Assembly (NCBI GenBank): GCA_963771175.1
Contig: CAVYSY010000026.1
Coordinates: forward strand, 320,001-384,000
Length of the DNA: 64,000 bases
Direction: 5' to 3'
Source: an uncultured delta proteobacterium
GTDB lineage: Bacteria > Myxococcota > Myxococcia > Myxococcales > Myxococcaceae
Shown: in pieces, positions 25,431 to 59,759 of the stretch
Layout of the letters: every line of letters starts with the position of its first letter
Position numbering within the stretch: position 1 is the stretch's first letter
The notes under the pieces: model-generated
The model's input: the letters and a program-made list of their open reading frames with translations, nothing else
Told to the model about the DNA's origin: nothing
The model's database searches: none
Program-made: the position numbers and the translations under genes

Positions 25431-25460
25431 AGGGACGAACCAGCCAGGAGCCGCCTGACA
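25431..25460 (-). promoter_or_regulatory. Putative ECF promoter of rtcB
   Basis: Reverse strand TGTCAG-GCGGCTCCTGGCTGGTT-CGTCCCT (17-nt spacer). Confidence 0.7.
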
Positions 25461-25525
25461 CCCGACCGCGCCATCGTGGGAGACTCACGGAGAAGCAACT
25501 TCATGGAGAACGAGGGACGAGGCTC

Positions 25526-26161
25526 ATGCTGAACAGGCGAAGAACCTGGAAAGAAACGCGCAGGTATCCATTCACCGCCAGCCTCCTGCTGTGGGCATTT
25601 CTCTCGGGATGCCTCCATAAAGAACCGCCAGCCCCCCGGCTCGCGCCCGAGTGCAAGGCGCCAGGGCCCACGGGGCCTGACACAATCCCCTGCCGGGTGT
25701 CCCCCGACTGGGTCAGGCAACAGGCGGCCCCGCCTGTCCATCCCCTCATCCAAGCGGCATTTTCCGATGAAGCAACGACCCGCTGGCCCAAGATTCCACT
25801 CGCGTCCGTTGAAGAGAGCCTGACGGACAGTCATCGAATCCTGCTCACTGGGCGGCTCGCGATGGTGAGCGGAAAATCCCAGGGAGGAGAGTTCATGAGG
25901 TTCTTTGACAATGATTCCGATGGTTATGTGGATCGTGTGGATGAACTCATCCTCGGCCCAGATCGCAGCACCACGCGGATCGCGCGAGATACGAATCAGG
26001 ATGGCCGCCCGGACCAGCGAGAACTACTGATTTCATTCTGGCGGGAGAACGAATGGCAGCACCGAATAGCGACACTAGATGAACAAATCATCAAGACATC
26101 CAAGACATTGACCTGGAGCATGCATGGGTATGCGTGGCTCCAAAGCAACATAGAGGACTGA
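25526..26161 (+). CDS. Hypothetical lipoprotein, lower GC
   Basis: Lipobox FLSGC; DNDSDGYVD and DTNQDGRPD Ca-binding-like loops; AT-richer codon usage. Confidence 0.5.
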   Translation: MLNRRRTWKETRRYPFTASLLLWAFLSGCLHKEPPAPRLAPECKAPGPTGPDTIPCRVSPDWVRQQAAPPVHPLIQAAFSDEATTRWPKIPLASVEESLTDSHRILLTGRLAMVSGKSQGGEFMRFFDNDSDGYVDRVDELILGPDRSTTRIARDTNQDGRPDQRELLISFWRENEWQHRIATLDEQIIKTSKTLTWSMHGYAWLQSNIED

Positions 26162-26522
26162 ATGAATGCGCATGATGGATGCGCGAGGTCTCTCGCGTCC
26201 AACTGGCCAGGTGTTACTGCGGCAGTTCCACGCTGAAGTGCCCATCTGGATACAACGAATGATGGGGGAGTCTGGCGCGGCACGCACTCGCGCCACGCCG
26301 CCTGGGGGTTTCTGCAGGACCTGCTGAACAAGTTGCCGGAAGAAATTGCTGCGGTCGCGAAAACAGCGAGGGCCCATTGCCCCCCAACCCGGTGCCCTCC
26401 GCGCTCGCCCGACCGGTGGGCGGGAGAGGGGTCCTGACTTTCTGGGAACTCACCCTTGTTAGAGGCCAGAGGAGGTCACGCGGACCGACCCATGTGCGCC
26501 GCGCCGCACCTCGAGGAGAACC

Positions 26523-28811
26523 ATGGCCCACACGCAGGCGAGCGAGGGAATGCGGGAGGCGCCCTTCGTGGCGAGCAGCCAACCGATGCTCTGGATTGGG
26601 GGCGGCCTGCCCCCGCGTTTCCGCTGGGCGAGTCCCGCCCTCGTGCACGCCCTCGGCCATCCCCTGGAGGAGTGGAAGACCCGGGGCTTCTTCCGGCGAC
26701 TCGTGCACCCGGAGCATCTCGACCGGGTGATGGACGCCTGGCGCGGAGTGGCCCAGAGCGGGAGTCCCCCGGACGGTCGAGTTCCACGCGGTATCGGCGG
26801 AGGGAGGGCTCGTCCGTCTGTCCGTCGAGCTGAGCGCGATCGAGCCCACGGCCGACGGCGCGGGAGAGCTCATCGGCACCCTCCAAGTCCTCCCCTTCCG
26901 GCCCCAGGCGGCCCTGGAGTCGCCTGCCTCTCGCGATGGAGCGCAGGGATACGCCTCCCCGGCCTGCGCCTGCCTGCGGGTGGAGACGCCCACAGGCGCC
27001 GAGGTGGACCTCCGCGAGACGCTGGACGGGCTCCCTGGTCCCGCCTGGCTGGTGGGTGAGGACCTGTCCATCGTGTGGTGCAACCCGCCGAAGCAGGCGC
27101 ACGGCACCGAGGAGCTGCTGTGCTCCGCGGCCCGCGCCTCGGCTCCCCAGGGCTGGGCCTCGGCCCATCGCCGGGCTCTCGCGGGAGAGCTGGGGAGCTT
27201 CGACTTCACCACCTGTGGCCACTCCTACCGGTGCCGCGTGGGGCCGGTGAGGGGGACCGAGGGTGACATCGTCGCGGCCCTCGGGGTCGCCACCGACGTC
27301 TCCGACCTCGACGAAGTGGCCCAGGAGCTCACCCGCACCCAACGCCATGCACGAGGGGCTCGTCGATGCCATCGACGGCATCGTCTGGGAGGCCGATGCG
27401 AGCTTCCGCTTCACCTTCGTCAGCAAGCAGGCCGAGCGCCTGGCCGGCTATCCCGTCCAGCACTGGACGCAGGAGCCGGACTTCTGGCTGAAGCACCTCC
27501 ACCCCGAGGACCGGGACTGGGCTCCCGCCTTCTGCATGAAGGCGACGCTGGAGTGCAGGCCGCACGAGTTCGAGTACCGGATGCTCGCGGCCGACGGGCG
27601 CACCGTGTGGCTGCGCGACATCGTCACCGTGGTCTCCGAGAATGGAATCCCCCGCAAGCTGCGGGGCATCATGGTGGACGTCACCGAGCATCGCCGGGCC
27701 CGGGAGGACCTGGAGCACACGGTCTCGCTGCTGCGCGCCACGCTCGACTCGACGGCGGATGGAGTCATCGTGGTGGACCGGAACCGGCAGATCACCGCCT
27801 CCAACGGGAGGTTCCAGCGAGCTCTGGCACGTCCCGCCCGAGCTGGTGGACACCCGGGAGTGGGAGCAGGTGTTCGAGCACGTGCGCGCCCAGGTCCAGC
27901 ACCCGGAGCAGTTCACGGCGCGGCTCCTGGAGCTGTACGCGGACCCCGAGAAGGAGGGCGTCGACACCATGGAGCTGCGCGACGGGCGCATCCTCGAGCG
28001 CTACTCGCGCCCCCAGCGGTTGGGAGACACCATCGTCGGCCGCGTCTGGAGCTACCGGGACGTGACGGCGGAGCGCCGCGCGCAGGCGGAGCGGGAGCGG
28101 CTGCTCCGCGAGGCCCAGGAGGCCATCCGCGTCCGGGACGACTTCCTGTCCATCGCGTCACATGAGCTGAAGACTCCGCTCACCCCCCTCAAGCTCCACC
28201 TGCAGGTGCTGAAGCAGCGGGTGGCACCCGGGCGGCCCGTCTCGTCCCCACACGTGGAGAAGGCGCTCGCCCAGGTCACCCGGCTCTCCGGGCTCATCAA
28301 TGACCTGCTGGACACCTCGCGCATCCAGGCGGGACGACTGGAGCTGAAGCACGAGCCCGTGTCGCTCCGGGAGCTCACCCGCGAGGTGCTCGCGGACCTC
28401 CGCCCGGTCAGCACCGACCACACGCTCGAATACGAGGAGTCCGACGAGGCGCTCGTCATCGAAGGAGACCGCGGCCGGCTCGGCGCAGGTGCTGGTGAAC
28501 CTGCTGGAGAACGCCCTCAAGTACAGCCCCACGGGAGGGAGCATCCGCGTCCGGGTGGAGAGGGACGAGACACAGGCCCGCATCTCGGTGTCGGACTCGG
28601 GGATTGGAATTCCACCGGACCAGAAGGCCCACCTCTTCGAGCGCTTCTTCCGCGCCCGCAACGCCCCCATCTCGGGCTTCGGCGGGCTGGGCCTCGGGCT
28701 CTACATCTGCCGGGACATCGTCGAGCGCCACGGCGGCCGCATCTGGGTGGAGAGCGAGGTGGGCCAAGGCTCCACCTTCCGATTCACCCTCCCGGTGGTG
28801 GCGCACCCTGA
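26523..28811 (+). CDS. Multi-PAS sensor histidine kinase (frameshifted)
   Basis: PAS repeats (LVHPEH, HLHPEDR), H-box FLSIASHELKTPLT, NLLENALKYS, DSGIGI, GLGLGL. Confidence 0.88.
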
Positions 28812-32175: not shown

Positions 32176-33155
32176 CCGAGCACTACCCCCGGCTGCGTCG
32201 TCTACTCCTCCCAGCAGGGGGAGACCACCTCGTCCAGCGGAAGTGGTTAGGCTCGTCGTGCACCTTCCGTTTGACCACTATGACCTCTCGGACGGAGTGA
32301 ACCGTGCGCTCGATGTGTACCTCCGCGCTATTGGACAGGGACCGGAAATTCTTTCGGAGTGGTGCGACGTCTGGCGAATTCGACGCATTTCCGCTGGATG
32401 AGTGCGGGTGGGAGTTCGTCCGGTCAGCGCTTTCGACACTCGCGGGGGACGCTTCCTCGACGACGTCAAAGACGAGCAATACGTCCATCGCCCGGTGAAG
32501 AAACAGTTCACCGTGCGCTGGCTGTTGGGTGGGTCATCGGGCGTCGTGGCTATGGATTCTTCTACTGGGCCCGCCTGCCTGGCGTACTCCCGTGGAGGAA
32601 AGGGTCACGCATCGGTGGCGCTTCTCCTGGCCCACGGAGTACCTCGAGGAGCACGGCCCCGGGACGAGTGAGGGGAGTTGCGCATGGAGCTGGCGTCAGT
32701 CCTGCCCTTCTCCTCCGGCCACGCCGGCCTCGCCTTCTTATTCGCCCAACCCCTTCGTGCGCTTCCATGGAAAGGGATTCGCGAGGACGCCTTCCGGTAC
32801 CCGGGGCTGGATGTGGCCCACGGCAGCACGATCCCTCGGGCCCCGCGTGGATGGCGTGCATTGGCTCAACTTCCTCGGCCAGCCAGTGCTGGGGGAGTTG
32901 GGCGGCGCCGCGGGCCTGCGCACCCGGCTGCACTCCCCTGGAACCACCGTCCAGGAGCTGGAGGGCGAGCGGGTCGTGGTGACGCTGGGAGAGTGGCCGG
33001 AGGCTGGAGACCTGGCGCGAGGCCAGGACCTCCCCGCGTACCGCGAACTCGCACATGTGCTGGAGCCCTGGCTGTACCAGTGCCCCAGCTACGAAGCGTT
33101 CCACGGCACCACACACGAGGAAACCGTTCGCTGGTGGCGCCGCTTCCTCGATTGA
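32172..33155 (+). CDS. DUF3396/TsiV-type immunity protein (frameshifted)
   Basis: MTEHYPRLR..., [60 protein letters not shown]. Confidence 0.8.
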
Positions 33156-37022: not shown

Positions 37023-37493
37023 ATGTCCGACACCGAGACCCGCCCCACCCAGGAGCAGCTCGACCGCTACGCCGAGCTGTTCAGCCAGAGTCAGACGATG
37101 CGGTTCTTCGGCCTGCGGTTGAGCTTCCCCCAGGGCGAGAAGGTCGTCATCACCCTCCCCGAGGTGCGCCCCGAGCACCGCGGGGGCCTGGGCACCGCCG
37201 CCATCAACGGGGGCGTGCTCTCCGCCATGTTCGACTACGCCATCGGCTGCACACCCGCCCTGAAGGACCCCTCCCGCCGCGCCGCCACCATGCAGCTCTC
37301 CATGAGCTTCGAGCGGCCCGTGCTGGGCGACGTCGTGCGCGCCGAGGCCACCATCGACTCGGCCGGCACCTCCACCCTCTTCGCCTCCGCCCGGATGTAT
37401 GACGCACAGGGTCAGGTGTGTGCCCGCTGCCAGGGGGTGGTCAAGCTGTCCCAGATGAAGTGGGCCTCGGGGCAGAGCCCCGCCATCAACTGA
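37023..37493 (+). CDS. PaaI/hotdog-fold thioesterase
   Basis: HRGGLGTAAINGGVLSAMFDYAIG, ATMQLSMSFERP. Confidence 0.85.
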   Translation: MSDTETRPTQEQLDRYAELFSQSQTMRFFGLRLSFPQGEKVVITLPEVRPEHRGGLGTAAINGGVLSAMFDYAIGCTPALKDPSRRAATMQLSMSFERPVLGDVVRAEATIDSAGTSTLFASARMYDAQGQVCARCQGVVKLSQMKWASGQSPAIN

Positions 37494-37603
37494 CCCCCCC
37501 TCCGCCTTCACCCCGCTCCGATATGCCCACTGGCACCGGACGTTTCCCAGGCACCGGGGAGCAGCGAGACCCTGGCGGGCCCTCGGATTCTCGGGAAGGC
37601 GCG

Positions 37604-38242
37604 ATGGGTGTGGCCTTGGTGCAACCAGTGCGGAGCGTGGTGCGACAGCGGGAGGAGAGCACGCGACCGGGGGGGAGCGTGCGGGAGGACGAGGTCGAGC
37701 TCGCACGGCGCGCCCTGCACGGGGAGCGTGCCGCCTGGGATGTACTCATCTCCCGCTACCATCACCGAGTGGTGGTCTCGCTGCTCGCCCGGGGAGTCCG
37801 GGCGGATCGGGCACAGGAGATTGCCCAGGAGACGTGGGTGCGTCTCATCCAGCAGCAGCAGAAGGGGCAGCTCCCCGAGCTGCGCCTGCCCAACCTCGCC
37901 CTCACCCAGGCGGCGTTCCTCGCGGCGGACGAGGGGCGTCGGGCCCGCCGGGAGTCCGTGGCGGGCAGCGTGGAGGAGCTGTCCGAGGCCCACCACCCGG
38001 TGGACCCCTCGGTCTCCGCCGAGCGGCGCCTGTTGTCCGAAGAGCAGCTCGCCCGGGCCCAGACGGCCCTGAAGCAGTGCTCGACGAGCGCCCAGCGGGT
38101 CTTTCAACTGGCGTGCGACGGCCAGGAGCTGCCGCACGCCGAGGTGGCCGCGCGCGTCGGCTTGTCCGTGCAGCGCGTCCGACAAATCTTGTGCGAGGTC
38201 CGCAAGAAGCTGCGGAGCGCCCTCGAGGAGGAAGCACCATGA
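37604..38242 (+). CDS. ECF RNA polymerase sigma factor
   Basis: Region 2 AQEIAQETWVRL; region 4 HAEVAARVGLSVQRVRQIL. Confidence 0.85.
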   Translation: MGVALVQPVRSVVRQREESTRPGGSVREDEVELARRALHGERAAWDVLISRYHHRVVVSLLARGVRADRAQEIAQETWVRLIQQQQKGQLPELRLPNLALTQAAFLAADEGRRARRESVAGSVEELSEAHHPVDPSVSAERRLLSEEQLARAQTALKQCSTSAQRVFQLACDGQELPHAEVAARVGLSVQRVRQILCEVRKKLRSALEEEAP

Positions 38243-42516: not shown

Positions 42517-42682
42517 CGGAAGGACCTCGGAGCGCCGCCAGGAGGCAAGAGACCCCCGCCTGGGCAGGGTGGGGTTCGGTGAAACGGCGGGTCAAGGTAG
42601 CACGACGGCATCCGAAGGCAGCCTCCCGATTACACCAGCGCCGTGTGTCCGACAGCGGGCACACGAAGGGCGTCTGAAAGGC

Positions 42683-42711
42683 AGGACGGAACCCGGGGGG
42701 GATTCCTGACG
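42683..42711 (-). promoter_or_regulatory. Putative autoregulatory ECF promoter of the sigma/anti-sigma operon
   Basis: Reverse strand CGTCAG-GAATCCCCCCCGGGTTC-CGTCCT (17-nt spacer). Confidence 0.7.
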
Positions 42712-42792
42712 GGGGGATTTTCCGGCCCATTTTTCCGGGCCCGGGTCCCCCCCGGCCGGACAGACCTCGCCCTGAACGCCCGGATAGCCTCC

Positions 42793-42822
42793 CGTCAGGA
42801 GGGGCGGCTGCGCCCCGTCCCT
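42793..42822 (+). promoter_or_regulatory. Putative ECF promoter of the metallophosphoesterase
   Basis: CGTCAG-GAGGGGCGGCTGCGCCC-CGTCCCT (17-nt spacer). Confidence 0.7.
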
Positions 42823-42854
42823 GCGGCTGAATTCAATTTAAAGGAAGCATCACC

Positions 42855-43559
42855 ATGTCCCGCACCATCGTCATCGGAGACCTCCACGGGTGTTACGACG
42901 AAGCCCTGGAGCTTCTCGACCGCGTGGGCGCCACCTCGAGTGATCGGATCATCTTCACGGGTGACCTCGTCGACCGAGGCCCCAAGCGCCGCGAGTGCGT
43001 CGAGCTGGCCATGCAGCACGAGTCCATCCTCGGCAACCACGAGGAGAAGCACCTGCAGCAGCGCCGCCGCAAGGACGCCGACCTCCTGCCGGATCATCTG
43101 GAGACCCGGCAGGTCCTCGGCCCCGAGCACCTCGAGTACTTCGCCACCCTGCCCCACTTCATCCGCCTGCCCGAGCACAACGCCGTCGTCGTCCACGCCG
43201 GAGTGCTGCCCGGAAAGGCCATCGAGGAGCAGGACACCTATCACCTGCTCCATGCCCAGTGCGTGAGGCCCCCGGAGCGCAAGAGCTTCTGGCCCTCCAA
43301 GGCGCCCACCGACTACCGCTTCTGGACGCACCACTGGAAGGGCCCCGAGCGCGTCATCTTCGGGCACACCGTGTTCGACCGGCCGCTCGTCACCGAGCAC
43401 GCGGTGGGCATCGACACCGGGTGCGTCTACGGCCGCTCGCTCACGGCGGTGGTGCTCCCCACGTGGGAGCTCGTCTCGGTGCCCGCGCGCCAGACGTACC
43501 GGGGCGGCAAGGACGTGGCCCTGCTCCCGGTCCACGGCGATGTGAACGTGTTCTCGTGA
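42855..43559 (+). CDS. Calcineurin-like metallophosphoesterase (PrpE/ApaH/Pnkp-phosphatase type)
   Basis: GDLHG, GDLVDRG, GNHE, VHAG, FGH, IDTG motifs. Confidence 0.9.
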   Translation: MSRTIVIGDLHGCYDEALELLDRVGATSSDRIIFTGDLVDRGPKRRECVELAMQHESILGNHEEKHLQQRRRKDADLLPDHLETRQVLGPEHLEYFATLPHFIRLPEHNAVVVHAGVLPGKAIEEQDTYHLLHAQCVRPPERKSFWPSKAPTDYRFWTHHWKGPERVIFGHTVFDRPLVTEHAVGIDTGCVYGRSLTAVVLPTWELVSVPARQTYRGGKDVALLPVHGDVNVFS

Positions 43560-43627
43560 GCTGACCCCGGCCGACAGGGACCTTCGGTGACCTTCGAGCG
43601 CGAACCGGCATAGAATCCAGGGAGCCA

Positions 43628-44383: not shown

Positions 44384-44425
44384 CCAGTTCTCTCTCGTCC
44401 CAGCGCCAGGGCCCGCGGCAGGCGC

Positions 44426-44575
44426 TCAGGCGGAGAAGATGAACAGCCGCTTCTTGACGACAATCTTGACCCAGGTCTCGGTCTGGGCCTTCAGGCCCGC
44501 GGTCGCGAGCTTCTCGCGGGAGACGGTGACCCGCTTCTTCTCCGATTCCGTTGCCTTGGGTTTCGAGCGCGCCAT
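44426..44575 (-). CDS. Small basic hypothetical protein (49 aa)
   Basis: GAGGAG upstream; MARSKPKATESEKKRVTVSREKL... Confidence 0.35.
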   Translation of the reverse strand: MARSKPKATESEKKRVTVSREKLATAGLKAQTETWVKIVVKKRLFIFSA

Positions 44576-44901
44576 GGTTGCGTCCTGCTCCTCTTTGGTT
44601 CCTTGACGAATCCTGCCGTGCTTCGCTCCGGTGGGGAAGCCCCAGGGGCTCGGCTCGCCCGGAACGCATTGCCACGCGCTACGGCGCGAGCCACGGGCGC
44701 TGTCGCCAGGTGCGCGGCGCCGTCGTACGCTTCTCCCGTTCCTTCGCAATCTCCCCATCCGTCAGCCAGGGGATTTTGTCGGGGTACTTGAAGGCGAAGA
44801 ACTCGAAGTCATCCTTTCCCAGCGCTCCGGGGCGACCTGCGCTGCAGGGGCGCGGGACCTTGGGCACCTCAGCTTCGGAGTGGAGCGCCTTACGTCCGGC
44901 G

Positions 44902-44926
44902 GCGGGTTCGATTCCCGCCTCCACCA
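44902..44926 (+). other. Isolated tRNA/tmRNA 3'-end remnant
   Basis: GCGGG-TTCGATT-CCCGC T-arm followed by CTCCACCA; no matching 5' half found. Confidence 0.5.
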
Positions 44927-45010
44927 GCAGCGTGGCGTCAGGCAGGGTGCGGTCCCCCGCTTTTTGAAGGCATTCTCTACCGAGGGTAACCGGGGCAAGC
45001 CCACGGATCT

Positions 45011-46627
45011 TCAGGCGACATCCGAGGCGAGTGCAGTCCTTCTCACCGGGCTGACGCCCGCGGCGCCCACCCCGAGCTCGGCGGCGAGTGCCTCCAGGGC
45101 GGCGGGAGCGATGCGCGGATCCTGCCGCAAGTGACCCAGCGCGCGAGCCGATTCGGCCGCTCCGGGCTCGGCACTCTGCACCTGGACGACGAAGGCCGAT
45201 GCGCACAGCAGGGCTCTCGCGGCACACCCCGCGGTGGAGGCGGAGTCGCGCCCCGCGAGCAGCACGGCGGAGAGGATCTCATTCACCTCCGGGAGCGCAC
45301 CGCCCGCCAGGGTACGCACGCGCGAGAGTGTGGGGAGGATGAAGCGCCGGGGCTCCTCCAGCCGCGCGGCGAGCGCGAGCGTGCGGGCCGCCGTAACGGC
45401 CAGCATCTCCTCGCCATCACCGCCGCCCAGGTGCGCCACACAGCGGCGCGTGAGCCTTACCAGCAGCGGAGCCAACGCCGCGCTGCCTCCAATCAAACCC
45501 AGGGCCTCGTCGAGCAACCGCGCGTGACAGTCCTCGATTCGCGCGGGCAAGGGCCGCACGGGCGCCTCCACTCGCGCCACGGGAGGCTCCTCGAAGGCCG
45601 CGTCCGGAGGAGGTGGAGGCTCCACGGGGAGCAGCACCGGCGGAGGACCCGCGTGGCTCCGCTTGCCTGGCTCCGTCCGAGCAACGGGGAACAGCACGGG
45701 CGGACGCAGTGGGGTCCTGTCGCAGAGAGAGAGCTCCTCGCCAGCCGCACCGGCCAGGTCCTCCGAGAGAATCGAGCGGCGCTCGGGGAAGATCCGGGCG
45801 AAGAGACTGGCGATGTCGAGCTGGTCCACGCAGAGCTGACGCTCCTCGAGGAAGCGACGCAGGATGTCCGAGAGCTCGCGCGCCGAACGGAGCCGGGCCT
45901 CGGGATCCGCTGCGAGGGCGCGGAGCAGCACGGTCCAGAGCGACGGCGGACACCCGGGCAGCGGCTCCAGGCCGCGCTCGTCGAAGGCGCCGATCTGCTG
46001 GACGACCTGGGGAGAGTCCTCGAAGAGGGGCCGCCTGGCGAGCAGCTCGTAGAGGATCGACCCGAGGCGGAAGACGTCGCCGCGGGCCTCCACGAGGCGA
46101 CCTCGGGCCTGCTCGGGCGTGAGGTAGCGGGGCTCGCTCCGGACCCCCCCCGGGTCCACGAGCTTCACTTCACCAAGGCTGGAGATCCACACCAGGGAAG
46201 GCTGGAGGCCACGGTGGCCAGAGCGTGCGCGATGCAGATGGGCGAGGCCCTCGGCCACCTGCTGCACAATGAAACACACCTCGCGCAGCCCGATCGCCCC
46301 CCCGCGCGCCCCCACCTCATCCAGCAGGGAGTGCAGGTTCTCTCCGTCCACGAGCTCCAAGACCCGGCAGGGCTGGCCGTTGCTCACGCCCGTGCCCAAC
46401 ACCCGCACGACATTCGTGTGCGGGAGCGCGGCGGACGTCCTGGCCGAGCCCAGGAAGAGCTCGACGAAGATGACATCCCGCGCGGACTCGGGCAGCAGGC
46501 GCTCGATGCACACGGGCATCTCCGCCCCCTCGGCATCCACCGCCTTACCGAGGAGCACCTCGGCCACGGCGTTTCGCGACAGCGTCCGAACGATGCGATA
46601 GGTCCCCACGAGCGCCCCCAGCCCCAC
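45011..46627 (-). CDS. Ser/Thr protein kinase-fold protein lacking catalytic residues (pseudokinase)
   Basis: Kinase framework (LPHTNVVRV, LELVDGENL, YLTPEQARG, DVFRLGSILYELL) but VCIERL, HRGLQPS and LVDPG in place of VAIK, HRDxKxxN and DFG. Confidence 0.75.
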   Translation of the reverse strand: MGLGALVGTYRIVRTLSRNAVAEVLLGKAVDAEGAEMPVCIERLLPESARDVIFVELFLGSARTSAALPHTNVVRVLGTGVSNGQPCRVLELVDGENLHSLLDEVGARGGAIGLREVCFIVQQVAEGLAHLHRARSGHRGLQPSLVWISSLGEVKLVDPGGVRSEPRYLTPEQARGRLVEARGDVFRLGSILYELLARRPLFEDSPQVVQQIGAFDERGLEPLPGCPPSLWTVLLRALAADPEARLRSARELSDILRRFLEERQLCVDQLDIASLFARIFPERRSILSEDLAGAAGEELSLCDRTPLRPPVLFPVARTEPGKRSHAGPPPVLLPVEPPPPPDAAFEEPPVARVEAPVRPLPARIEDCHARLLDEALGLIGGSAALAPLLVRLTRRCVAHLGGGDGEEMLAVTAARTLALAARLEEPRRFILPTLSRVRTLAGGALPEVNEILSAVLLAGRDSASTAGCAARALLCASAFVVQVQSAEPGAAESARALGHLRQDPRIAPAALEALAAELGVGAAGVSPVRRTALASDVA

Positions 46628-46756
46628 ACCTGCCCGTCTCCCCGAACACTCTCGGGGCCGGGCAACCTGGGCATCGCTAGGAAGCTAGGAAGCTCGCCTG
46701 GACCGGCACCCCGCCCTGAGGTTGGGATTGCCCGCCTTGCAGTGGACATCTCCCGC

Positions 46757-47185
46757 CTAGGGCGCGGTCATGAGGCCCAGCACCTTCGCGCCTGCCGACT
46801 TCGCCCCGTCGAGCGCGGCCACCACCCTACCGTAGGGAGCGCGATCATCCGCCGTGAAGAACAGGACTCTGTCCTGCACGGGCATGGCGGCAAGGATGCG
46901 TGTCAGGCGCGGGACATAGTCCGCCTCGCTGACGGGCTCGTTGTTGAGGGTAAGCAGCCCCTCGGGGCTGATGGCCACCACCACCTGCTGGGTCTCTCGT
47001 GGCGCCTCGCTCGGCGTCTCTTCCTCTGTCAGAGGGAGCTTGACGTCGATGTCCTTCTCCATGAGCGGTGTCACCACCATGAAGATGATGAGCAACACGA
47101 GCACCACATCCACGAGAGGGGTGACGTTGATGTCCGCGTTCGCGTGGCCTTGAGGAAGAACGAAGGCCTTCTTGTGGGTGCGCAT
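46757..47185 (-). CDS. ExbD/TolR family protein
   Basis: DINVTPLVDVVLVLLIIFMVVTP, ADDRAPYGRV. Confidence 0.9.
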   Translation of the reverse strand: MRTHKKAFVLPQGHANADINVTPLVDVVLVLLIIFMVVTPLMEKDIDVKLPLTEEETPSEAPRETQQVVVAISPEGLLTLNNEPVSEADYVPRLTRILAAMPVQDRVLFFTADDRAPYGRVVAALDGAKSAGAKVLGLMTAP

Positions 47186-47198
47186 CGTGGACCTCCCG

Positions 47199-47618
<420 letters not shown>

Positions 47619-47734
47619 GAGGGTCCGCGCTCCTTCGTGAGGGGGAGAAAGCAAGACCACCGTACGCGGCCACACGAGGGCGTTGGCCGGCATGCCCTCA
47701 TGCTTCCGTCATGGTTTCGTCATCTCCGCCGACC

Positions 47735-47763
47735 TGTCAGGAATGAGGGGCCGCCACGTCCCT
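47735..47763 (+). promoter_or_regulatory. Putative ECF promoter of the vWA operon
   Basis: TGTCAG-GAATGAGGGGCCGCCA-CGTCCCT (16-nt spacer). Confidence 0.7.
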
Positions 47764-47798
47764 TCGCGCAGAACGACTCGCGCCCAGCGGAGGGGCAC

Positions 47799-49567
47799 AT
47801 GACCACCCAGAACCAGACCACCCCCACGCTCCCCGAGGCCCAGCGCGGCCCGGCGGAGAAGCTCCTGGACCTCGTCCTCGGGGGCTCCGCGCACCTGTGG
47901 CACAACCGCCCGGGCCTGGACGTGAACGGCGTCTGGCACCCGGCCCAGGCGGCGAAGCCGGACCTCGTCCGCCGCGGCACCCCGGTGAAGCCCGGCCTCT
48001 TCGTGCCCGCCGCGGTGAAGCTCTACGGCCAGCTGCTGGACATCTACCGGCTCAACACGGACCTGATGGCGCACTTCGCCTCCTACGCGCTCACGCAGAC
48101 GGACTGGCGCGATCTCAAGGTGGCCACCTGCGCGCTGATGCTCGTGCAGAGCCACTCCGGGCAGCCCGTGCGCGAGGACGACGGCTCCATCGCGTTCCAC
48201 GACGACGACTTCCGCGCCATCGGCGAGGCCATGCTCCTCCACTACGAGCGCAAGTCCACGCGCATGCTCACGCCCAAGGCGGTGCTGCGGGTGGCCGAGC
48301 TGCTCGAGACGCCGGAGATCGCCCGCCTCAACCGCGAGGCCGGCTTCGGTGACCCCGCGTCCCGCAAGCCGCCGCTCGGCCGCTGGAAGCGCGTGGCGAC
48401 GAAGTGGCTGCGGCTGCGCGAGCAGAACCTGCCCATGCTCCAGGGCCTGGTGAAGGCCGGCTACAAGGAGACGCTCAAGAGGATCGCCCGCAAGGCCGGT
48501 TACAAGCCGGTGTCGCAGGCCTTCTTCGAGGTGCTCGGCTGGAAGCAGAAGCAGGCGGCCGCGGGCCACCGCTCGGTGGGCCTGGAGGGACTCAAGCTCG
48601 TCAAGCGGGAGCGCTTCGACGGGCTCTCGGAGGCGGAGATCTGCGAGTGGATCGAGCTGGAGCGCCTCTCCTACAAGGAGGTGGTGGGCCGGCTGCCCAA
48701 GGACCTGGGCCTGACGCCGGCCATCATGGCGGCGCTCCTGCCCTCGCTGTCGGACCGCGACTTGCGCATGCTGACGCCCACGCTCGAGGAGCTGGGGCTG
48801 ATGTCCGACCCCGCGATCCGCGCGCGCTGGGAGAAGGCGGTCGCAGACGGCGACCGACCAGCGCGCGCTCCACATCGCGAAGAACGTCCGCAGCCAGGAG
48901 CTGAAGGCGAAGCTGGAGGAGGCGAGCGACAACGCGGCGAAGGCGGCGGTGGCGGAGGCGACGGCCGAGACGGACGTGAGGGTGATGTTCCTCATCGACA
49001 AGTCGGGCTCCATGGAGGGCGCCATCGAGCAGTCCAAGGAGGCGCTGTCGCGCATCCTCGCCGGCTTCCCGCTGGAGAAGCTGCACATCGCGTCGTTCGA
49101 CACGATGGGCACGGTGCTGAAGCCCAAGGCGGCGAGCCGGGCGGCGGTGCAGCACATGCTCGCAGGGGATTCAGGCGTCGGGCGGCACGACGCACGCGGC
49201 CGGTGTGCATGCGCTGCACCGGGCGGGAGTGCGGGTGCCGGAGGAGGCGAAGCTCGTCGTCATCGTCGTGGGTGACGAGGCCGGCGAGGCGGGTGACCAG
49301 TTCGCCCGCGCCTTCCGCGAGTGCGGCTACAGCGTGGCCGCCATGGCGCTGCTGGTGAGCGTGGCCAGCACGCGGGGCAGCACCGTGCGCACGTGCGCGG
49401 CGCAGCTCCGGGTGCCGTTCAGCGAGGTGCAGGTGGACCAGTTCGAGGACCCGTACCAGGTCCCCCGCGTGCTCAAGGCGCTGATGGACGCGCCGACGGC
49501 GACCGGGGCCAGCCAGTCCGGCTGGGTCGAGCGGGTGATGCGCACGCCGCTGCTGAAGGTGGCGTGA
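47799..49567 (+). CDS. Large helical N-domain + C-terminal vWA domain protein (frameshifted)
   Basis: MIDAS motif FLIDKSGSMEG, then GGT and VVGDE elements; frameshifts near 48845 and 49165. Confidence 0.8.
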
Positions 49568-49574
49568 GAGAGGA

Positions 49575-50575
49575 GTGGGTGTCGTGGACTACCGGAAGTT
49601 CCTCGGGAAGGTGGAGTCGGCGGTGCTGCCCTACTTCGGCGGCGCCTCCGTCGACGCGGCCTCGCGGCGCCTCCGCGTGTCCACGCCGCCCGCTCCGGGC
49701 TGGTGGCGCTTCGACGTGCAGGGGCGCACCGCCACCGCGCGGGAGCCGGCCGAGCCGGAAGGGCTCGACGGGCTCCCGCTCATTCGTGGACATCTCTGGG
49801 GCTCGCGGTTGGTGCGCGAGGGCGCGGTGGCCGAGCCGGTGAAGCTCCTCCCCGAGGAGGAGCCGCCGCGCTTCTCGCCGCTGCGCGCCCGGCGCTGGCA
49901 TGACGGGACGCTCGTCTTCGAGGGGCTCGACTTCGAGGGCGAGGCCGAGGGCACCGCACGCCTCCTGTTGGAGGAAGGCCGGGCGCTCGCGGAGGTGAAG
50001 GCCGTGCCGGCGTCGCTGCGGGCGGCCTTCGGTTACGCGGTGCTGGAGGGTGCCTCGCGCGCGCTCGGCATCCGCTTCTCCCCGGTCGAGGTGCGTGGAC
50101 AGGTGCTGTCCGTGTCCGAGGGAGGCCGTCCCGCGGCCGAGGCCCGGCTGCGGGCCCTGGCCGCCGAGCGCGAGGCCCACGTGCGGGCAGTGGAGGCACG
50201 GCCACGGGCGCGTGGAGGTCCAGCGGCAGCGGGCGGTGGAGGAGGTCCGGCTGCAGGCGGAACTGGCGCGACTGCGGAGCCAGCCGCGTCACCTGCAGCA
50301 GCAGGCGCAGGGGGCCGTGCGGGTGGAGCGGGCGTTGGAGGCGGCGGGGGCGCGGCTGCTCGACACGCGGCGGCTGGGGAGCGAGCGGCTCGAGGTGACG
50401 TTCGGCTTCATGGGCGAGCGCTTCATCAGCATCGTCGAGGCGAGACACGCTGCAGGTGGTGGACGCGGGCATCTGCCTCGCGGGAGCGGACCGGGAGGTG
50501 ACGCTGGAGAGCCTGCCGTCGGTCATCCGCGAGGCCATCGAGGACGACGTGCTGGTCATCACCCGGCACGCGTGA
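49575..50575 (+). CDS. Hypothetical protein with coiled coil and C-terminal E2-like DAGICL motif (frameshifted)
   Basis: Joined frames end ...LEVTFGFMGERFISIV...LQVVDAGICLAGADREVTLESLPSVIREAIEDDVLVITRHA*. Confidence 0.6.
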
Positions 50576-50585
50576 GGGCCTTCCC

Positions 50586-51048
50586 ATGGACAAGCGCGAG
50601 GTCTGCCTGCTCATCGGCCGGGACGGGACGGTGCTGTGGAGCGATGCCTCGGACAGTCCCGTGCTGGCTGCCGGACTCGCGCGCACGCTGGGAGGCCATC
50701 TGGCGGCTGCGCGACGAGCTGGAGGAGATTGCTCACAGCCACCCGGTGGGACCGCTGGGCTTCAGCGCCGAGGACGAGACGACGATGGCGGCGCTCACCG
50801 AGGCGCTCGGACGGCCAGTGCGCTTCTCGGTGGTGGCGCCCGACGGCATGGTGGTGCGCGAGGACGGTCGAGACTTCATCGTCACCGAAGAGCCCGCCTG
50901 GGCCGGACACATGCGGGCCGACTCCGGAATGAGCTCCCTCGACCATCCGGCGGTAACCGCACCTCCTCTCCGCCCTCCAGAAGGTGACACTCGTCGGTTC
51001 GACGGAGACTTCTTCGAGGCGCATGAGCCGGTAGGATGCGGCGCGTGA
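50586..51048 (+). CDS. JAB/MPN metallo-isopeptidase (frameshifted, end uncertain)
   Basis: N-terminal REVCLLI (catalytic Glu) and AHSHPVGPLGFSAED (HxH-x7-S-x2-D JAMM motif). Confidence 0.8.
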
Positions 51049-51308
51049 GCGCGAACGAGCACGACGATGAGGGACGGACGGATCGCTGGCAGAGCCTCGT
51101 GACAGGGGCCTTCCTGCTCGAGGAGTCGCTGAAGGCAACCCCTCCCCCGAGTGACACACGGCCCCCCAGAGCGCTCGCGGTGAGCTACCTCGACAGCGTG
51201 CTGGAGGTGTTCCCCTCCAGCGTGGACCCGGTCGAGGACTTCGAGGGCTACGCCATCCGGCGGATGGCGCTCGCCCTGCGCCGGGCCCTGGAGGAGAGCG
51301 GACGCTGA
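51036..51308 (+). CDS. Small hypothetical protein
   Basis: GC3-rich ORF of 90 aa following the JAB gene. Confidence 0.5.
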   Translation: MRRVSANEHDDEGRTDRWQSLVTGAFLLEESLKATPPPSDTRPPRALAVSYLDSVLEVFPSSVDPVEDFEGYAIRRMALALRRALEESGR

Positions 51309-51324
51309 GCGCTCCGGGCCGGGC

Positions 51325-51985
51325 TCACACCGGACGGAGCTCGGAACGGTAGCCGCCCTGCTCGACGGGAGGCTGGGTCCCGAGCTTCTGCTCGACGGCC
51401 TTCACGCCGAAGGCGCTGGGGTCGAGCTGGTCGCGGCCGGAGAAGACGCCGCGGGCGCGGCCCAGCAGCCACCCGAGGCCCTTCACCGCATCCCGGAGAA
51501 TCCGGATGGGCGCCGCGCGCGACATGAGCGGCGGGCTGAGCTGGTCGAGCTCCTCGCCCTTCAGGGTCATCTCCTTCACCCCCACGCCTTGCGAGTACAC
51601 CATCTCCGCCGCCCAGCCAGCCGGTATAGGAGGCGAAGGCGAACGCGCCCAGTCCCAGGAGGGTGGAGAGCAGAGAGGGACGGTGGCTCGCCCGCCATGT
51701 GGCGACCCCGAAGGCCCCCAGCACGATGACGACGTTGCCGAGCCCGTGCAGGAACATCATGTCCTTGGAGTGCTTGTCGGTCTTCACCTCCTGGGAAGCG
51801 GCCATCCCGGCCAGACCCGCGAGCAGCCCGCCCGCCGCGACGCTCCACCACAGCGTCCGGCCCGCCCGGTCCAACCTCCGGTCCTGGCTGAACGTCGCCG
51901 CCAGGTCGACGATGACCGTGGACGGCAACAGCGCCAGTGGAGCGTGAATCAACATCGGGTGCAGCTCGTGTACGCGCGTTTCCAT
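51325..51985 (-). CDS. DUF2231-type membrane protein (frameshifted)
   Basis: LHPMLIHAPLALL, AGLAG, FLHGLGN, YTGWLGG.MVY..GVGV. Confidence 0.75.
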
Positions 51986-55858: not shown

Positions 55859-55860
55859 GT

Positions 55861-55890
55861 CGTCAGGAACACCGTCCGCCTCACGTCTCC
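55861..55890 (+). promoter_or_regulatory. Putative ECF promoter of the Ubl-E1 operon
   Basis: CGTCAG-GAACACCGTCCGCCTCA-CGTCTCC (17-nt spacer). Confidence 0.65.
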
Positions 55891-55955: not shown

Positions 55956-56201
55956 ATGGCGACGCTGAACATCACCTACAACGGGCTGTCCTCGGACCTG
56001 CCGCTGGAGCTGGACGGCCACGTGGCGGACGTGGACGTGCGGCGCATCGCGGTGGAGGTGGTGCGCTCGGGCGGGGCGCCGGGGCTGCACATCGCCAACC
56101 TGCGCGAGGACGCCTTCGCCCACTACGTGGTGGACCGGTTCCGCGGGCCCCGGGGCGAGGAGCGCATCTACCTGCGGCCCAAGGTGCCCTTCGGGGCGTG
56201 A
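55956..56201 (+). CDS. Putative ubiquitin-like (beta-grasp) protein, 81 aa
   Basis: GAGGAGG RBS; N-terminal beta hairpin (ATLNITYNGLSSDL), helix, C-terminal IYLRPKVPFG-A; immediately upstream of the ThiF gene. Confidence 0.65.
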   Translation: MATLNITYNGLSSDLPLELDGHVADVDVRRIAVEVVRSGGAPGLHIANLREDAFAHYVVDRFRGPRGEERIYLRPKVPFGA

Positions 56202-56214
56202 GGGAGGGCCCACC

Positions 56215-56793: not shown

Positions 56794-56828
56794 AGGAAGG
56801 GGGATATGCTCCAGGGCACGAGGTCCTC

Positions 56829-57422: not shown

Positions 57423-57430
57423 CCCGGGGC

Positions 57431-58207: not shown

Positions 58208-58227
58208 GGAGCCGCCATACTACCGGC

Positions 58228-59614
58228 TCACGGGGAGGGCCAGCGCTCCAGTTCCATCTCGTCGAGGAACACCGTGTGGTTGTTGCCGTTCAGCGGCTGG
58301 ACGGCGATGCCGCGCACGGCCTTCAGGGTGAGCCCGTCGTTGGGTGCGCCCGCGGGCTGCCAGTCGTTCCGCCGGGTGAAGGCCGACAGGGGCACGCTCA
58401 TCCACTTCCAGCCGACGTTGTCATCCTTGAAGCCGAACTCGAAGCGCTCGGCCGAGTCCGCGCTGTCGCCGTTGTCCCACAGCTCCAGGCGGAAGGAGTC
58501 TCCGGTGTTGGTGCCGTGGAACCAGAAGTTCAGGTAGTGCCCCTGGCTCCAATCCAGGGGCGTCTCGAAGGTGCGCGCGAGGCTGGCCTGCGACGAGCTG
58601 GCGATGTCGTACTCCAGCACGAACGTGTTCCCCACGTGCCCATACTCATGCAGCCAGACGTTGAGCCGCGAGCCCGACCCGACCGACATCGTCCAGGTGC
58701 CGAGCGCCTCGAAGTCCTCCACCACCTCCTTCGGAGCGGCCAGCCCGTAGCGGACCTCGTCATAGAAGGAGACCATCGGCGAGCCCGGCCAGGTGAAGGA
58801 GCCCATCCAGTACTCGGTGCCCGGACCGACGCCGGGCCAGAAGTTCATGATGATCCGCCCCGGATGGGAGGGCAACGACCCCAGCGGGCCCGTCGCGCTC
58901 TGGACACGCGAGCCGTCGACGTACCAGTGGAGGGCCTCGCGCGTCCATTCGAGGCCGTAGGTGTGGAAGGCCTCCGCGGCGTCGAAGGGAAGGTCGAGCC
59001 CCGCGTAGTGGCCCTGTCCGTTGACCACGTAGTTCATCTGCATCCGCCGGGTGTTCAGCCCGACGAAGGCGATGTCGATGCCATCCCAGCGCGTATTCTC
59101 AGCCGGGCCCGTGTAGATGCTGAAGGACGTCAGCGTGCCCGAGCCGCGCGCGGGCTTCATCCGGACCTCGTAGCGCCCGTAGCCGTGGAGCCGCGTGGAG
59201 GCGACCTCGCCCGAAGCATAGGGGCGGCCGGAGCACCCGTCCGGGCACGGCGTCTTGTCGAGCTGCAGCTCCAGGATCCCACCGTTGGCCCGCACGTGGT
59301 CGGCACGCCAGCCGGCATTGAAGTCCTCGCTGCTGGCCCAGCCATCCGAGCGGCGCCAACGCGTGGTGTCGAACGTGTCGAACGTGTCGTCGAAGGTCCC
59401 AGGGCCCTCCAGCCAGGAGAGTGTCGGGGGGCCACCGTCGACGCCGCCGACATAATCGCTACTTCCCGCGTCCGTCCCACCAGCCACCGCCACCTCCTCC
59501 CTGCCCCACACCTCCATCGGAGGTGGAGATGCCGTCGTAGTCGGACCAGCGGCAGCCCGCCTGGAGCAGACCGGTCGCCAGCAGGAGCAGTCCCCATCTC
59601 ACGTTGCGAGCCAT
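58228..59614 (-). CDS. GH16 (lichenase-like) lipoprotein with C-terminal CBM-like domain; catalytic glutamates absent
   Basis: Lipobox LQAGC; YASGE, YGRYEVRMKPA, FHTYG, IMNFWPG; WDGIDIAF in place of WDEIDIEF. Confidence 0.8.
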
Positions 59615-59730
59615 GTGTCGCACCCTCCTTGGACGCGCATGGCGCCGAATCTACCAAGCCGGGCCCTCCCGGGTGCGCCGCCTGGCTGCTCGCTCTCCGA
59701 AACCGTCCGAAAAACTCCGGGAAAATGCCG

Positions 59731-59759
59731 CGTCAGGATTCCGGGAACCCAGCGTCCAT
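59731..59759 (+). promoter_or_regulatory. Putative ECF promoter of the tRNA array
   Basis: CGTCAG-GATTCCGGGAACCCAG-CGTCCAT (16-nt spacer). Confidence 0.7.

Follow-up and report, generated by a model that had tools for sequence, protein, structure and literature searches.

The 64,000-nucleotide stretch analyzed here (the window; positions 320,001 to 384,000 of contig CAVYSY010000026.1, from an uncultured member of the Myxococcaceae) carries six copies of one bipartite, promoter-like motif, GTCAGG-N15/16-CGTC, each ahead of a different unit: the RNA ligase-family gene rtcB, an operon for an extracytoplasmic function (ECF)-type sigma factor and a putative anti-sigma factor, a divergent metallophosphoesterase gene, an operon that begins with a Ro60-like gene, an operon for a ubiquitin-like (Ubl) candidate and an E1-like enzyme, and the leader of a tRNA array (Table 1). 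The motif, its conservation in related genomes, and the predicted gene functions suggest, at a probability of about 0.7, that these units form one regulon under the sigma/anti-sigma pair, directed at RNA damage or translation stress. An earlier reading of the same DNA (the original prediction) had proposed a single ECF regulon over all six units. Comparative evidence supports this for five of them, namely the sigma, phosphoesterase, Ro60-like, Ubl, and tRNA-leader units; the flanks of the copy at rtcB score at the level of shuffled sequence, and because comparative support covers only the other five, rtcB is the least certain member.

Six Copies of a Bipartite Motif in the Window

Both strands of the window were searched for GTCAGG-N15/16-CGTC, with 100 dinucleotide-preserving shuffles as background. 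Six exact matches were found against 0.91 expected; the shuffle maximum was four, and none of the 100 shuffles reached six. All six sites of that prediction, written there as YGTCAG-G(N15-16)-CGTC, were recovered, and each is oriented toward a same-strand gene start 26–168 nt ahead of which it lies. Measured from the final C of CGTC, the start codon is 120 nt away for rtcB, 168 nt for the sigma gene, 35 nt for the phosphoesterase, 47 nt for the Ro60-like gene, 68 nt for the Ubl gene, and 26 nt for a small open reading frame (ORF) in the tRNA leader, with the first tRNA of the array 288 nt downstream of the motif copy. In anchored views, a longer consensus, (c/t)GTCAGGAAc ... CGTCCc, is visible across the copies.

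Counted from GTCAGG, the spacer is 16 nt at rtcB, the sigma gene, the phosphoesterase, and the Ubl gene, and 15 nt at the Ro60-like gene and the tRNA leader. The two length classes stand as first described, with lengths of 16 and 15 in place of 17 and 16, since the earlier count took the last G as spacer. The proposal that the shorter class reflects homopolymer shortening in the assembly is contradicted by related genomes, in which N15 occurs at the Ro60-like promoter in 14/14 Archangium, Cystobacter, and Vitiosangium loci (L001–L014 of the set introduced below) and at the tRNA leader in L009, L015, and L016. At the Ro60-like promoter, the bases that follow the −10 element (window 47761–47785, CCTCCGnGCAGAACGA) are conserved across Archangium and found in the same place in L001–L013; they may represent the start-site region or an extra control element.

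The pattern had been selected after the sequence was viewed, and all patterns of the form 6-mer-N15/16-4-mer were therefore counted against Markov shuffles. In the window, 1705 such patterns reach at least six copies, as against ~1020 in the shuffles, and at least 10-fold enrichment over expectation is seen in only six of the 1705, GTCAGG/CGTC included. The motif count by itself is thus weak and fails multiple testing; with so many like patterns it proves little, and the case depends on where the copies lie, how they are oriented, and how well they are conserved across species. One-mismatch variants occur at chance level in the window (for N16, 13 found versus 11.7 expected; for N15, 8 versus 11.2), so that no additional motif sites are claimed.

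A weight matrix trained solely on sites from other genomes gives the six copies the six top scores in the window, five of them at 20.6–27.4 bits and the rtcB copy at 15.3 bits, compared with a mean best score of 15.0 bits and a maximum of 24.6 bits in shuffled windows; as the training sites had been chosen for an exact core, these scores measure the flanks only. The scan of the window gave no seventh site above 11.4 bits.

Conservation of the Motif at the Same Units in Relatives

Related sequences were collected by a genome scan with alignment A2 of the second gene of the Ro60-like operon (the middle gene), which yielded 80 loci with 10-kb flanks, 1,423,985 bases in total, from Archangium, Cystobacter, Vitiosangium, Myxococcus, Corallococcus, Pyxidicoccus, Polyangia, Labilithrix, and, in two cases, Virgisporangium (Actinomycetota). 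The window proteins were placed on these loci by tblastn. Thirty-eight loci with a middle-gene identity of at least 64% (Myxococcaceae/Archangiaceae) are referred to as clade A and the remaining 42 as clade B.

The exact motif occurs 110 times in the 80 loci, against ~20 expected at the shuffle rate of the window. Ninety-six of the matches lie at most 450 nt upstream of, and on the same strand as, a gene of the proposed regulon or its neighborhood: Ubl (30), Ro60-like (26), sigma (20), phosphoesterase (17), HNH endonuclease (2), and middle gene (1). The other 14 comprise three ahead of tRNA arrays (L009, L015, and L016), two ahead of Y-like RNAs (L070 and L072), two at locus ends before a tRNA leader of the window type (L003 and L033), and seven elsewhere. 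Among these seven, three Labilithrix matches (L045:13254-13279, L053:13387-13412, and L055:13401-13426, all on the − strand) lie inside the palindrome GTCAGGCCGTCCCGnAGGGCGGCGTC, which is more likely a hairpin than a promoter.

Expressed per gene, clade A has the motif upstream of 30/30 Ubl genes (one with N17), 17/19 phosphoesterase genes, 19/25 sigma genes, and 22/37 Ro60-like genes, and the 15 clade-A Ro60-like genes without a copy of their own all lie directly behind the phosphoesterase gene. The corresponding figures in clade B, where the phosphoesterase gene is not present, are 1/31 for Ubl, 1/2 for sigma, and 4/37 for Ro60-like. Control genes are nearly free of it: 1/38 (clade A) and 0/42 (clade B) for the middle gene, 0/24 and 0/2 for the anti-sigma gene, and, for two genes present in clade A only, 0/12 for a DUF1684 gene and 0/14 for a second sigma gene. 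More distant sigma orthologs (61–62% identity; L042 and L070) retain the motif, either at their own gene or at the cassette. Given this conservation at the same units and the clean controls, the motif tracks the clade bearing this sigma factor and marks the same units in it. The examination of orthologous upstream regions that the original prediction had suggested was therefore in its favor: the motif is kept at the Ubl, phosphoesterase, sigma, and Ro60-like genes and in front of tRNA arrays in three loci, and it is very probably a real shared cis-element. The E1 gene was considered as a separate motif-bearing gene and rejected, since the Ubl gene is only ~260 nt long and the 18/59 upstream matches of E1 merely re-detect the Ubl promoter.

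Three layouts recur. In Myxococcus, Corallococcus, and Pyxidicoccus the arrangement is compact, with the anti-sigma and sigma genes on one strand, the phosphoesterase, Ro60-like, and middle genes divergent from them, and Ubl-E1 a few kb further on; in Myxococcus, divergent motif copies lie within the shared sigma/phosphoesterase intergenic region. In Archangium the units are separated by other genes, as in the window. In Polyangia, Labilithrix, and the Actinomycetota, the Ro60-like, middle, JAB, Ubl, and E1 genes form one cassette with no sigma gene within the flanks. Outside the sigma-bearing clade the cassette thus consists of Y RNA, Ro60-like protein, middle protein, JAB peptidase, Ubl, and E1, often with flanking tRNA arrays and an HNH gene. 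In the GC-rich distant loci, longest-ORF gene calling picked shadow frames, and Pfam was run there on L032, L039, and L046 only (47/132 ORFs listed).

A Divergent ECF-Type Sigma Factor and a Putative Anti-Sigma Factor

The sigma gene lies behind the second of the motif copies listed in Table 1, and the original prediction of an ECF sigma factor with the motif before its own gene agrees both with a Sigma70_r2 match above the cut-off and with the conserved exact motif at its orthologs. Homologs of the protein number 403, and the named ones are all from Myxococcota. The motif is probably read by this sigma factor. A second ECF-type sigma gene (window 37403-38239, + strand) is located ~4 kb from the first and is syntenic in 20 Myxococcus-type loci; it was rejected as the owner of the motif, which is found in 0/14 of its usable upstream regions.

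Directly downstream of the sigma gene in every case, and conserved in 26 loci, is the gene for the anti-sigma candidate. In the candidate, H202/C206/C209 and H254/C258/C261, which form two H-x3-C-x2-C motifs, are invariant in 13 orthologs. It also has a weak match to RslA (3hug_B, E = 0.073), and its translated sequence has no visible hydrophobic segment.

A Predicted Ro60-like Protein and Its Y-like RNAs

The first protein of the third operon, labeled a vWA protein in the original prediction, has a vWA domain (VWA_2, 3.3e-8), in which the D-x-S-x-S motif of the metal ion–dependent adhesion site (D397, S399, and S401) is invariant in 31 orthologs. The protein as a whole, however, is Ro60/TROVE-like by its predicted fold. 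An AlphaFold model of an intact ortholog, built on a 31-sequence alignment (predicted local distance difference test score, pLDDT, 81.4), was compared with the Protein Data Bank (PDB), and 8/10 best matches were TROVE/Ro60 chains with 551–614 aligned columns, E values of 1.1e-8 to 1.2e-6, and template-modeling scores of 0.35–0.55. The full-length matches, at E values of ~1e-8 to 4e-6, include 9kop (1.1e-8), 1yvp, 9nfa, 2i91, Deinococcus radiodurans Rsr (2nvo), and a Thermus phage Ro60. By sequence, the protein has no match to Pfam TROVE (PF05731) at E ≤ 1, and a phmmer search of the PDB returned vWA proteins only; the nearest clusters in the language-model Atlas are TROVE (score 0.84), which serves as a lead only. 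The N-terminal part is 59–66% identical in Virgisporangium (L062 and L073). The Ro60 fold moves the reading from a Ubl system with RNA repair toward a module centered on Ro60 and Y RNA.

Consistent with such a module, the 300-nt gap between the phosphoesterase and Ro60-like genes in Myxococcus contains a match to YrlA (RF02553) at 48.8 bits and E = 1.7e-9 (searched in a 1.6-kb stretch of L027), which is below the Rfam gathering threshold of 69. The Y-like RNA has a conserved closing stem (GCGCCCGGCCG ... CACTCGGGCGC) that encloses a variable, often tRNA-like middle, the tRNA-like module comprising a T arm, an acceptor-like stem, and a D arm. In an alignment of 16 sequences, 33 pairs are 98.8% paired with compensatory changes at 15 pairs; this degree of pairing and covariation was reached by 0/500 shuffles, and slid controls were 35–52% paired. 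With a covariance model (R1), 92 matches at E ≤ 1e-3 were obtained in ~55/80 loci, the actinomycete loci included; nearly all of these matches are located a short way ahead of the Ro60-like gene or within the leader of the phosphoesterase gene. The RNA genes are 71–150 nt long and occur in one to three tandem copies ahead of the Ro60-like gene, including in the two Virgisporangium loci. Alignment A9 shows that a Y-like segment of ~80–100 nt is cleanly absent between promoter and ribosome-binding site in the window, L004, L005, L009, and L011, and is present in other Archangium species (window 47761-47807 compared with L001:8076-8220).

A Putative Minimal Ubiquitin-like Conjugation Set

The product of the middle gene, termed E2-like in the original prediction, is predicted to form two β-barrels, a long coiled coil, and a C-terminal domain. 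This model has no UBC fold and yielded no match in the PDB at E ≤ 0.001; weak OB-type domains (Mpa inter-domain, E 1e-2) scored best, and no usable Atlas neighbor was obtained. An E2/UBC identity is therefore ruled out by the predicted fold, the invariant cysteine (C297, in the C-terminal domain) sitting in another fold. The protein is conserved to a degree similar to that of the sigma factor.

The E1 label is confirmed, with ThiF matches above the cut-off in the window and in the L001 ortholog (2.7e-21) and a match to PADLOC E1-E2 models (9.9e-14). The JAB protein contains an H-S-H-P-x6-S-x2-D motif and matches Prok-JAB below the 25-bit cut-off in its L001 (E = 4.6e-4) and L039 (1e-4) orthologs. 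The Ubl candidate has no Pfam match; in 15/15 orthologs it ends in LRPKVPFG followed by a variable tail of 0–12 residues. A conserved motif with a terminal glycine plus a variable tail is the usual sign of a Ubl precursor that is trimmed to the terminal glycine.

Bil and CBASS (cyclic oligonucleotide–based antiphage signaling system) Cap2/Cap3 are bacterial ubiquitin-like conjugation sets in which Ubl, E1, and JAB are encoded together. The genes described here resemble them in that set and in the conserved C-terminal glycine of the Ubl candidate before a presumably removable tail; in contrast, no UBC-fold E2 was found in the present set, which has a minimal 192-aa ThiF E1, and shares one cassette with a Ro60-like protein and a Y RNA.

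tRNA Array, Leader, and HNH Gene

The array packs 13–14 tRNAs into 1.26 kb, the HNH endonuclease gene follows it, and the encoded protein matches PtuB-type PADLOC models. Arrays of 5–17 tRNAs were found in 7/80 loci, and an HNH ortholog stands next to tRNA arrays in L009, L015, L022, L031, L032, L039, and L046. In the Polyangiaceae loci among these (L031, L032, L039, and L046), tRNA arrays flank the cassette on both sides, the HNH gene lies between array and Y RNA, and the motif is missing. Because the linkage occurs in loci that lack the motif, it supports a functional link between tRNA array, HNH gene, and Ro60-Ubl cassette that is independent of the motif.

Downstream of the motif, the leader contains a Shine-Dalgarno sequence and a small ORF in the window (57 aa) and in L009 and L016 (57 and 44 aa); in L015 the Shine-Dalgarno sequence is kept and the first ATG opens a frame of two codons only. 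Between Archangium and Myxococcus, the ORF shows only loose sequence conservation. A GC-rich hairpin precedes tRNA-Tyr in the window, L015, and L016 and is missing in L009; in the window (leader region 59757-60044) it carries a short T run just before tRNA-Tyr, and a strict terminator scan of the leader made no call. By these sequence features the leader looks like a possible translation-sensing attenuator.

RtcB and the Metallophosphoesterase

The RtcB match spans nearly the entire Pfam profile, and the NCBIfam equivalog cut-offs are not reached. The motif copy ahead of rtcB is intergenic and correctly oriented and keeps a CGTCCCT extension. Within 10 kb of the cassette, an RtcB homolog was seen in 1/80 loci only (L035:4895-6046, − strand, 31% identity). 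The phosphoesterase matches ApaH-like (4e-26) and bacterial Pnkp phosphatase-region (1.9e-22) NCBIfam models, all below equivalog cut-offs, and its PDB matches include 2qjc (3.1e-27) and 4j6o (1.2e-19).

A Model for the Regulon and Its Alternatives

Based on these data, a simple model would have the sigma factor encoded at 41854-42516 read GTCAGG(AAc)-N15/16-CGTC(Cc) as its promoter, with the soluble anti-sigma factor, encoded just downstream and bearing two zinc finger–type H-x3-C-x2-C motifs, probably keeping it inactive. Once freed, the sigma factor would transcribe its own operon together with the ApaH/Pnkp-type phosphoesterase, the genes for the Ro60-like protein, the OB/coiled-coil (middle) protein, and the JAB peptidase, the Ubl gene with its minimal E1, the 13-gene tRNA array with the HNH gene, and probably rtcB as well; in Myxococcus, Y-RNA-like genes are embedded in the phosphoesterase/Ro60-like operon. 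The output would be a reaction to cleaved or damaged tRNA or RNA or to blocked translation, the presumed signal, and would unite end healing and ligation with tRNA resupply, with the handling of faulty RNA by Ro60 and Y RNA, and with the tagging of some target by Ubl. We infer from the sequences the recognition of the motif by this sigma factor, the binding of the sigma by the anti-sigma factor, and the RNA-damage output, and a function in RNA damage or translation stress is favored by a narrow balance of the evidence.

Several observations weigh against this reading. The sigma factor is a borderline family member, at 41.7 bits against TIGR02937 (cut-off 42.9) over residues 62-234; its region 4 has no Pfam match, a profile of 21 orthologs finds no solved sigma factor at E ≤ 0.01, and the −35 element does not have the usual AAC at the usual spacing. 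The exact copy is missing at 6/25 clade-A sigma genes; four of these (L018, L023, L024, and L026) offer no more than a doubtful site with one mismatch, and the other two (L033 and L041) have AGTC at −10. Assignment of the putative anti-sigma factor draws on gene order and a zf-HC2 match below threshold (E = 7.5e-4, 20 bits, cut-off 22.2). The window yielded no Y-like RNA: tRNA cross-matches were all that came from Rfam E-value scans of 42500-51500, 23000-27000, and 59600-61500 and from R1 run with filters off over all 64 kb, and a stem-motif search found no pair. The restriction of the weight matrix to flanks belongs here, as do the flanks of the rtcB copy, the weakest of the six, with no AA after GTCAGG. 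Finally, if the frameshifts that interrupt three cassette genes in the window were real, the module would be dead in this organism. Relative to the near-identical locus L005, the window has +1 insertions at 48845 and 49161 (Ro60-like), 50445 (middle gene), and 50663 (JAB), none in a long homopolymer run; as other window genes, such as that for ferrochelatase (3102-4431), are split too, sequencing error is likelier than decay.

The six matches might have arisen by chance from the base composition of a genome with 69% G+C, as the 1705 patterns that reach six copies (versus ~1020 in shuffles) would allow; this account has a negligible chance of being right, conservation at orthologous positions with clean controls refuting it for 5/6 sites. 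The motif might instead be real and read by another factor, be it another ECF sigma or a regulator that binds DNA to activate or repress, in which case the sigma at 41854-42516 would be just one of the targets. These genomes have many ECF sigma factors, including the syntenic one 4 kb away, and the atypical sequence of the proposed reader and its orthologs without an exact copy fit this explanation. However, the bipartite form, fixed spacing of 15/16, free spacer sequence, single orientation, and CGTC −10 element suit a sigma factor better than a dimeric regulator, the motif is found at this sigma (20/27) and not at the second one (0/14), and divergent copies share the sigma/phosphoesterase intergenic region of Myxococcus, so that a different reader appears improbable. 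As for rtcB, its copy could be a chance match, leaving a regulon of five units in the window without an RNA ligase. About 0.9 chance matches are expected per window, the score of the copy is close to the shuffled mean best (15.0, maximum 24.6) and far under those of the other five, and an RtcB homolog near the cassette is a rarity. Against this, the site is intergenic, points in the right direction 120 nt before the rtcB start, and keeps CGTCCCT; with an estimated ~8% of two-strand positions qualifying, ~0.08 such chance matches would be expected. RtcB moreover accompanies Ro60 and Y RNA in Salmonella (PMC7790460) and tRNA arrays with HNH in cyanobacteria (PMC8421152), as described in the available parts of these reports. 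Coincidence at rtcB is accordingly judged somewhat doubtful and carries real weight nonetheless.

A further alternative retains the wiring and changes the purpose: the regulon would chiefly be an antiphage or conflict island in which Ubl is placed on phage parts in a Bil-like manner, spare tRNAs replace destroyed ones, and the HNH nuclease is the effector. The cassette is patchy across Myxococcota and Actinomycetota (Virgisporangium L062 and L073), a spread usual for mobile conflict systems, the E1 and HNH proteins fit PADLOC E1-E2 and PtuB-type models, respectively, and Myxococcus xanthus DdvS/DdvA provides an ECF-controlled defense island (PMC6061681, PMC11506125; in the parts available). 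PADLOC defense models run on the window proteins nevertheless match only E1 and HNH, the sigma factor and cassette are conserved and syntenic like core genes within Myxococcaceae, and Ro60/Y RNA, RtcB, and Pnkp-type phosphatases are parts of RNA repair and quality control; a defensive main purpose is thus considered unlikely. Returning to an RNA-damage regulon, a more specific and speculative version, to which we give long odds, would make the Ro60-like/Y-RNA particle a sensor or scaffold for broken or misfolded RNA that is coupled to the minimal Ubl pathway. The cysteine-bearing OB/coiled-coil protein would replace the E2, and Ubl would tag a target in translation or RNA handling, or the anti-sigma factor, so that RNA damage becomes sigma release; in Myxococcaceae, one cytoplasm-sensing ECF sigma would wire this to tRNA resupply and RNA end repair. 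If true, the Ro60-Ubl coupling would give bacteria an equivalent of the RNA and ribosome quality control that depends on ubiquitin.

Relation to Known Systems

To our knowledge, only one model organism has been described for each of two themes, RNA repair operons (RtcR with rsr, Y RNAs, and rtcBA) and inducible tRNA arrays (TrcR), and the kinds of regulator differ. A third kind of switch, an alternative sigma factor with a soluble anti-sigma factor, appears to unite the two themes here. The comparisons that follow refer to the parts of the cited articles that were available.

The Salmonella rsr-yrlBA-rtcBA operon is under RtcR/sigma-54 control, responds to damaged tRNAs, and is silent in normal growth (PMC7790460), and Y RNA genes lie beside Ro60 genes (PMC4201824). 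The system in the window and its relatives is similar in having a Ro60-type protein, one or more tRNA-like Y RNAs in the same transcription unit, RtcB, and one dedicated regulator (PMC7790460, PMC4201824). In contrast to the Salmonella operon, which uses a CARF-domain enhancer-binding protein and sigma-54, an ECF-type sigma and soluble anti-sigma are predicted here; the units are dispersed and joined by the promoter only, the Ro60-like protein is too divergent for Pfam TROVE, no RtcA was seen, and Ubl, E1, JAB, OB/coiled-coil protein, phosphoesterase, and tRNA array are added.

In Anabaena PCC 7120, TrcR represses the trn tRNA array, the HNH gene all8564, and rtcB until translation is impaired, and dpsA also belongs to its regulon (PMC8421152, PMC10272220). 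Shared with that regulon are a tRNA array, supernumerary there and presumably so here, with an adjacent HNH gene, a distant rtcB, and one common promoter element (PMC8421152), and the long run of close-set tRNA genes with an HNH gene nearby also resembles the L-arrays, which are long and have spread horizontally (PMC8421152). TrcR is a ribbon-helix-helix repressor that acts on direct repeats over sigma-70-type promoters, whereas positive control by an alternative sigma factor is proposed here, and the available part of that account reports no Ro60, Y RNA, or Ubl system in Anabaena (PMC8421152).

With regard to the promoter, ECF41 sigma factors use TGTCACA-n16-CGTC upstream of the sigma gene and a neighboring target (PMC3426412). 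Their GTCA-containing −35 element, spacer of 16 ± 1, and CGTC −10 element have the same geometry as the present motif (PMC3426412). The present system differs in that its −35 element is GTCAGG(AA) rather than GTCACA, its sigma has no fused C-terminal regulatory domain, its anti-sigma candidate is a protein of its own, and its proposed regulon spans several units where ECF41 has a single neighboring gene (PMC3426412). In M. xanthus, the ECF sigma/anti-sigma pair DdvS/DdvA controls a CBASS/CRISPR-Cas island (PMC6061681, PMC11506125); it is likewise a myxobacterial ECF pair for a conflict or stress module rather than for envelope stress (PMC6061681, PMC11506125). DdvA is transmembrane, unlike the candidate described here with its lack of a hydrophobic segment, and the target genes are unrelated.

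No description of the regulon or of the Ro60-like/Ubl cassette was found in the literature searched, which agrees with the original prediction that the combination is undescribed as a single ECF regulon; coverage was partial, and earlier mention of such neighborhoods is possible. Among the matches listed for Myxococcus and Ro60 terms, only PMC7824862, available in part, pairs them, once each. The data suggest that the regulon extends known kinds, namely RNA repair regulons, Ro60/Y RNA modules, and ECF regulons, with the Ubl pathway as an added element. Addition of a Ubl conjugation set is unexpected, and the divergent Ro60 is missed by sequence models; Ro60-like proteins and Y-like RNAs that form a large family lie outside the current TROVE and YrlA models. 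The conserved genomic link of Ro60/Y RNA with Ubl tagging could open the question of the role of the bacterial Ro60 particle, and the concrete regulon proposed here can be tested in myxobacteria that are amenable to genetics; in M. xanthus, loci L017 and L029 have the compact form.

Table 1. Positions of the motif copies, predicted genes, and RNA elements in the window, with examples of Y-like RNAs from related loci
Feature	Position	Strand	Basis or remark
Motif copy ahead of rtcB	25434..25459	-	GTCAGG-N16-CGTC; weight-matrix score 15.3 bits, weakest copy; 120 nt before ATG at 25313
Motif copy ahead of sigma gene, putative autoregulatory promoter	42685..42710	-	Weight-matrix score 26.1 bits; exact in 20/27 sigma orthologs
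Motif copy ahead of metallophosphoesterase, divergent from sigma promoter	42794..42819	+	Exact in 17/19 orthologs
Motif copy ahead of Ro60-like operon	47736..47760	+	Top weight-matrix score, 27.4 bits; exact in 14/14 loci L001-L014
Motif copy ahead of Ubl-E1	55862..55887	+	Motif in 30/30 clade-A Ubl loci
Motif copy ahead of tRNA-array leader	59732..59756	+	Like arrangement in L009, L015, L016
rtcB, RNA 3'-phosphate ligase family	23889..25313	-	Pfam RtcB E=5.7e-90, 303 bits, profile positions 1-425 of 426
Putative cytoplasmic anti-sigma factor, 395 aa	40637..41824	-	Sub-threshold zf-HC2; two invariant H-x3-C-x2-C motifs; gene order
Divergent ECF-type sigma factor, 220 aa	41854..42516	-	Pfam Sigma70_r2 E=2.6e-7, 30.8 bits (cut-off 24)
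Calcineurin-like metallophosphoesterase, ApaH/PrpE/Pnkp-phosphatase type	42855..43559	+	Pfam Metallophos E=3.7e-14
Predicted Ro60/TROVE-like protein with C-terminal vWA domain	47808..49567	+	Fold of intact ortholog P0243; two +1 frameshifts in window
Middle protein ("E2-like" in the original prediction): two beta-barrels, long coiled coil, C-terminal domain	49575..50575	+	Predicted model, pLDDT 84.5; one frameshift in window
JAB/JAMM-type peptidase	50586..51048	+	HSHP...S..D motif in translations; one frameshift in window
Small ubiquitin-like candidate (Ubl)	55956..56201	+	Invariant C-terminal LRPKVPFG, alignment A8
Minimal E1-like adenylyltransferase, ThiF family, 192 aa	56215..56793	+	Pfam ThiF E=7.6e-21
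tRNA-array leader: conserved Shine-Dalgarno, small ORF (57 aa, start 59783), GC-rich hairpin before first tRNA	59783..59956	+	Leader comparison
Array of 13 tRNA genes	60045..61301	+	ARAGORN; Rfam 10 at gathering score, 11th at 31.5 bits
14th tRNA-like element	61055-61125	+	Rfam tRNA 31.5 bits, just over threshold in local scan; no ARAGORN call
HNH endonuclease gene	61328..61870	+	Pfam HNH 3e-15; start 27 nt after last tRNA
Y-like RNA examples in relatives	L027:7917-8060; L015:7047-7179; L001:8093-8194; L039:7700-7848 and 8044-8190		

Neighboring Genes

Two further gene groups of the window have no relation to the motif or regulon. Polymorphic toxin-type genes at 3-1951 (− strand) and 32499-33152 (+ strand), unrelated to the motif, encode an Imm52 immunity protein, a Tox-REase-5 nuclease-domain protein, and a TsiV-type immunity protein. 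At 13174-21052 (+ strand) lies a series of lipid-type genes that resembles an ether-lipid or alkyl-lipid cluster; its products are a HAD hydrolase, a LarA-like protein, a fatty-acyl reductase fused to an AMP-ligase (1189 aa), an acyltransferase that carries a carrier domain, and an epimerase.

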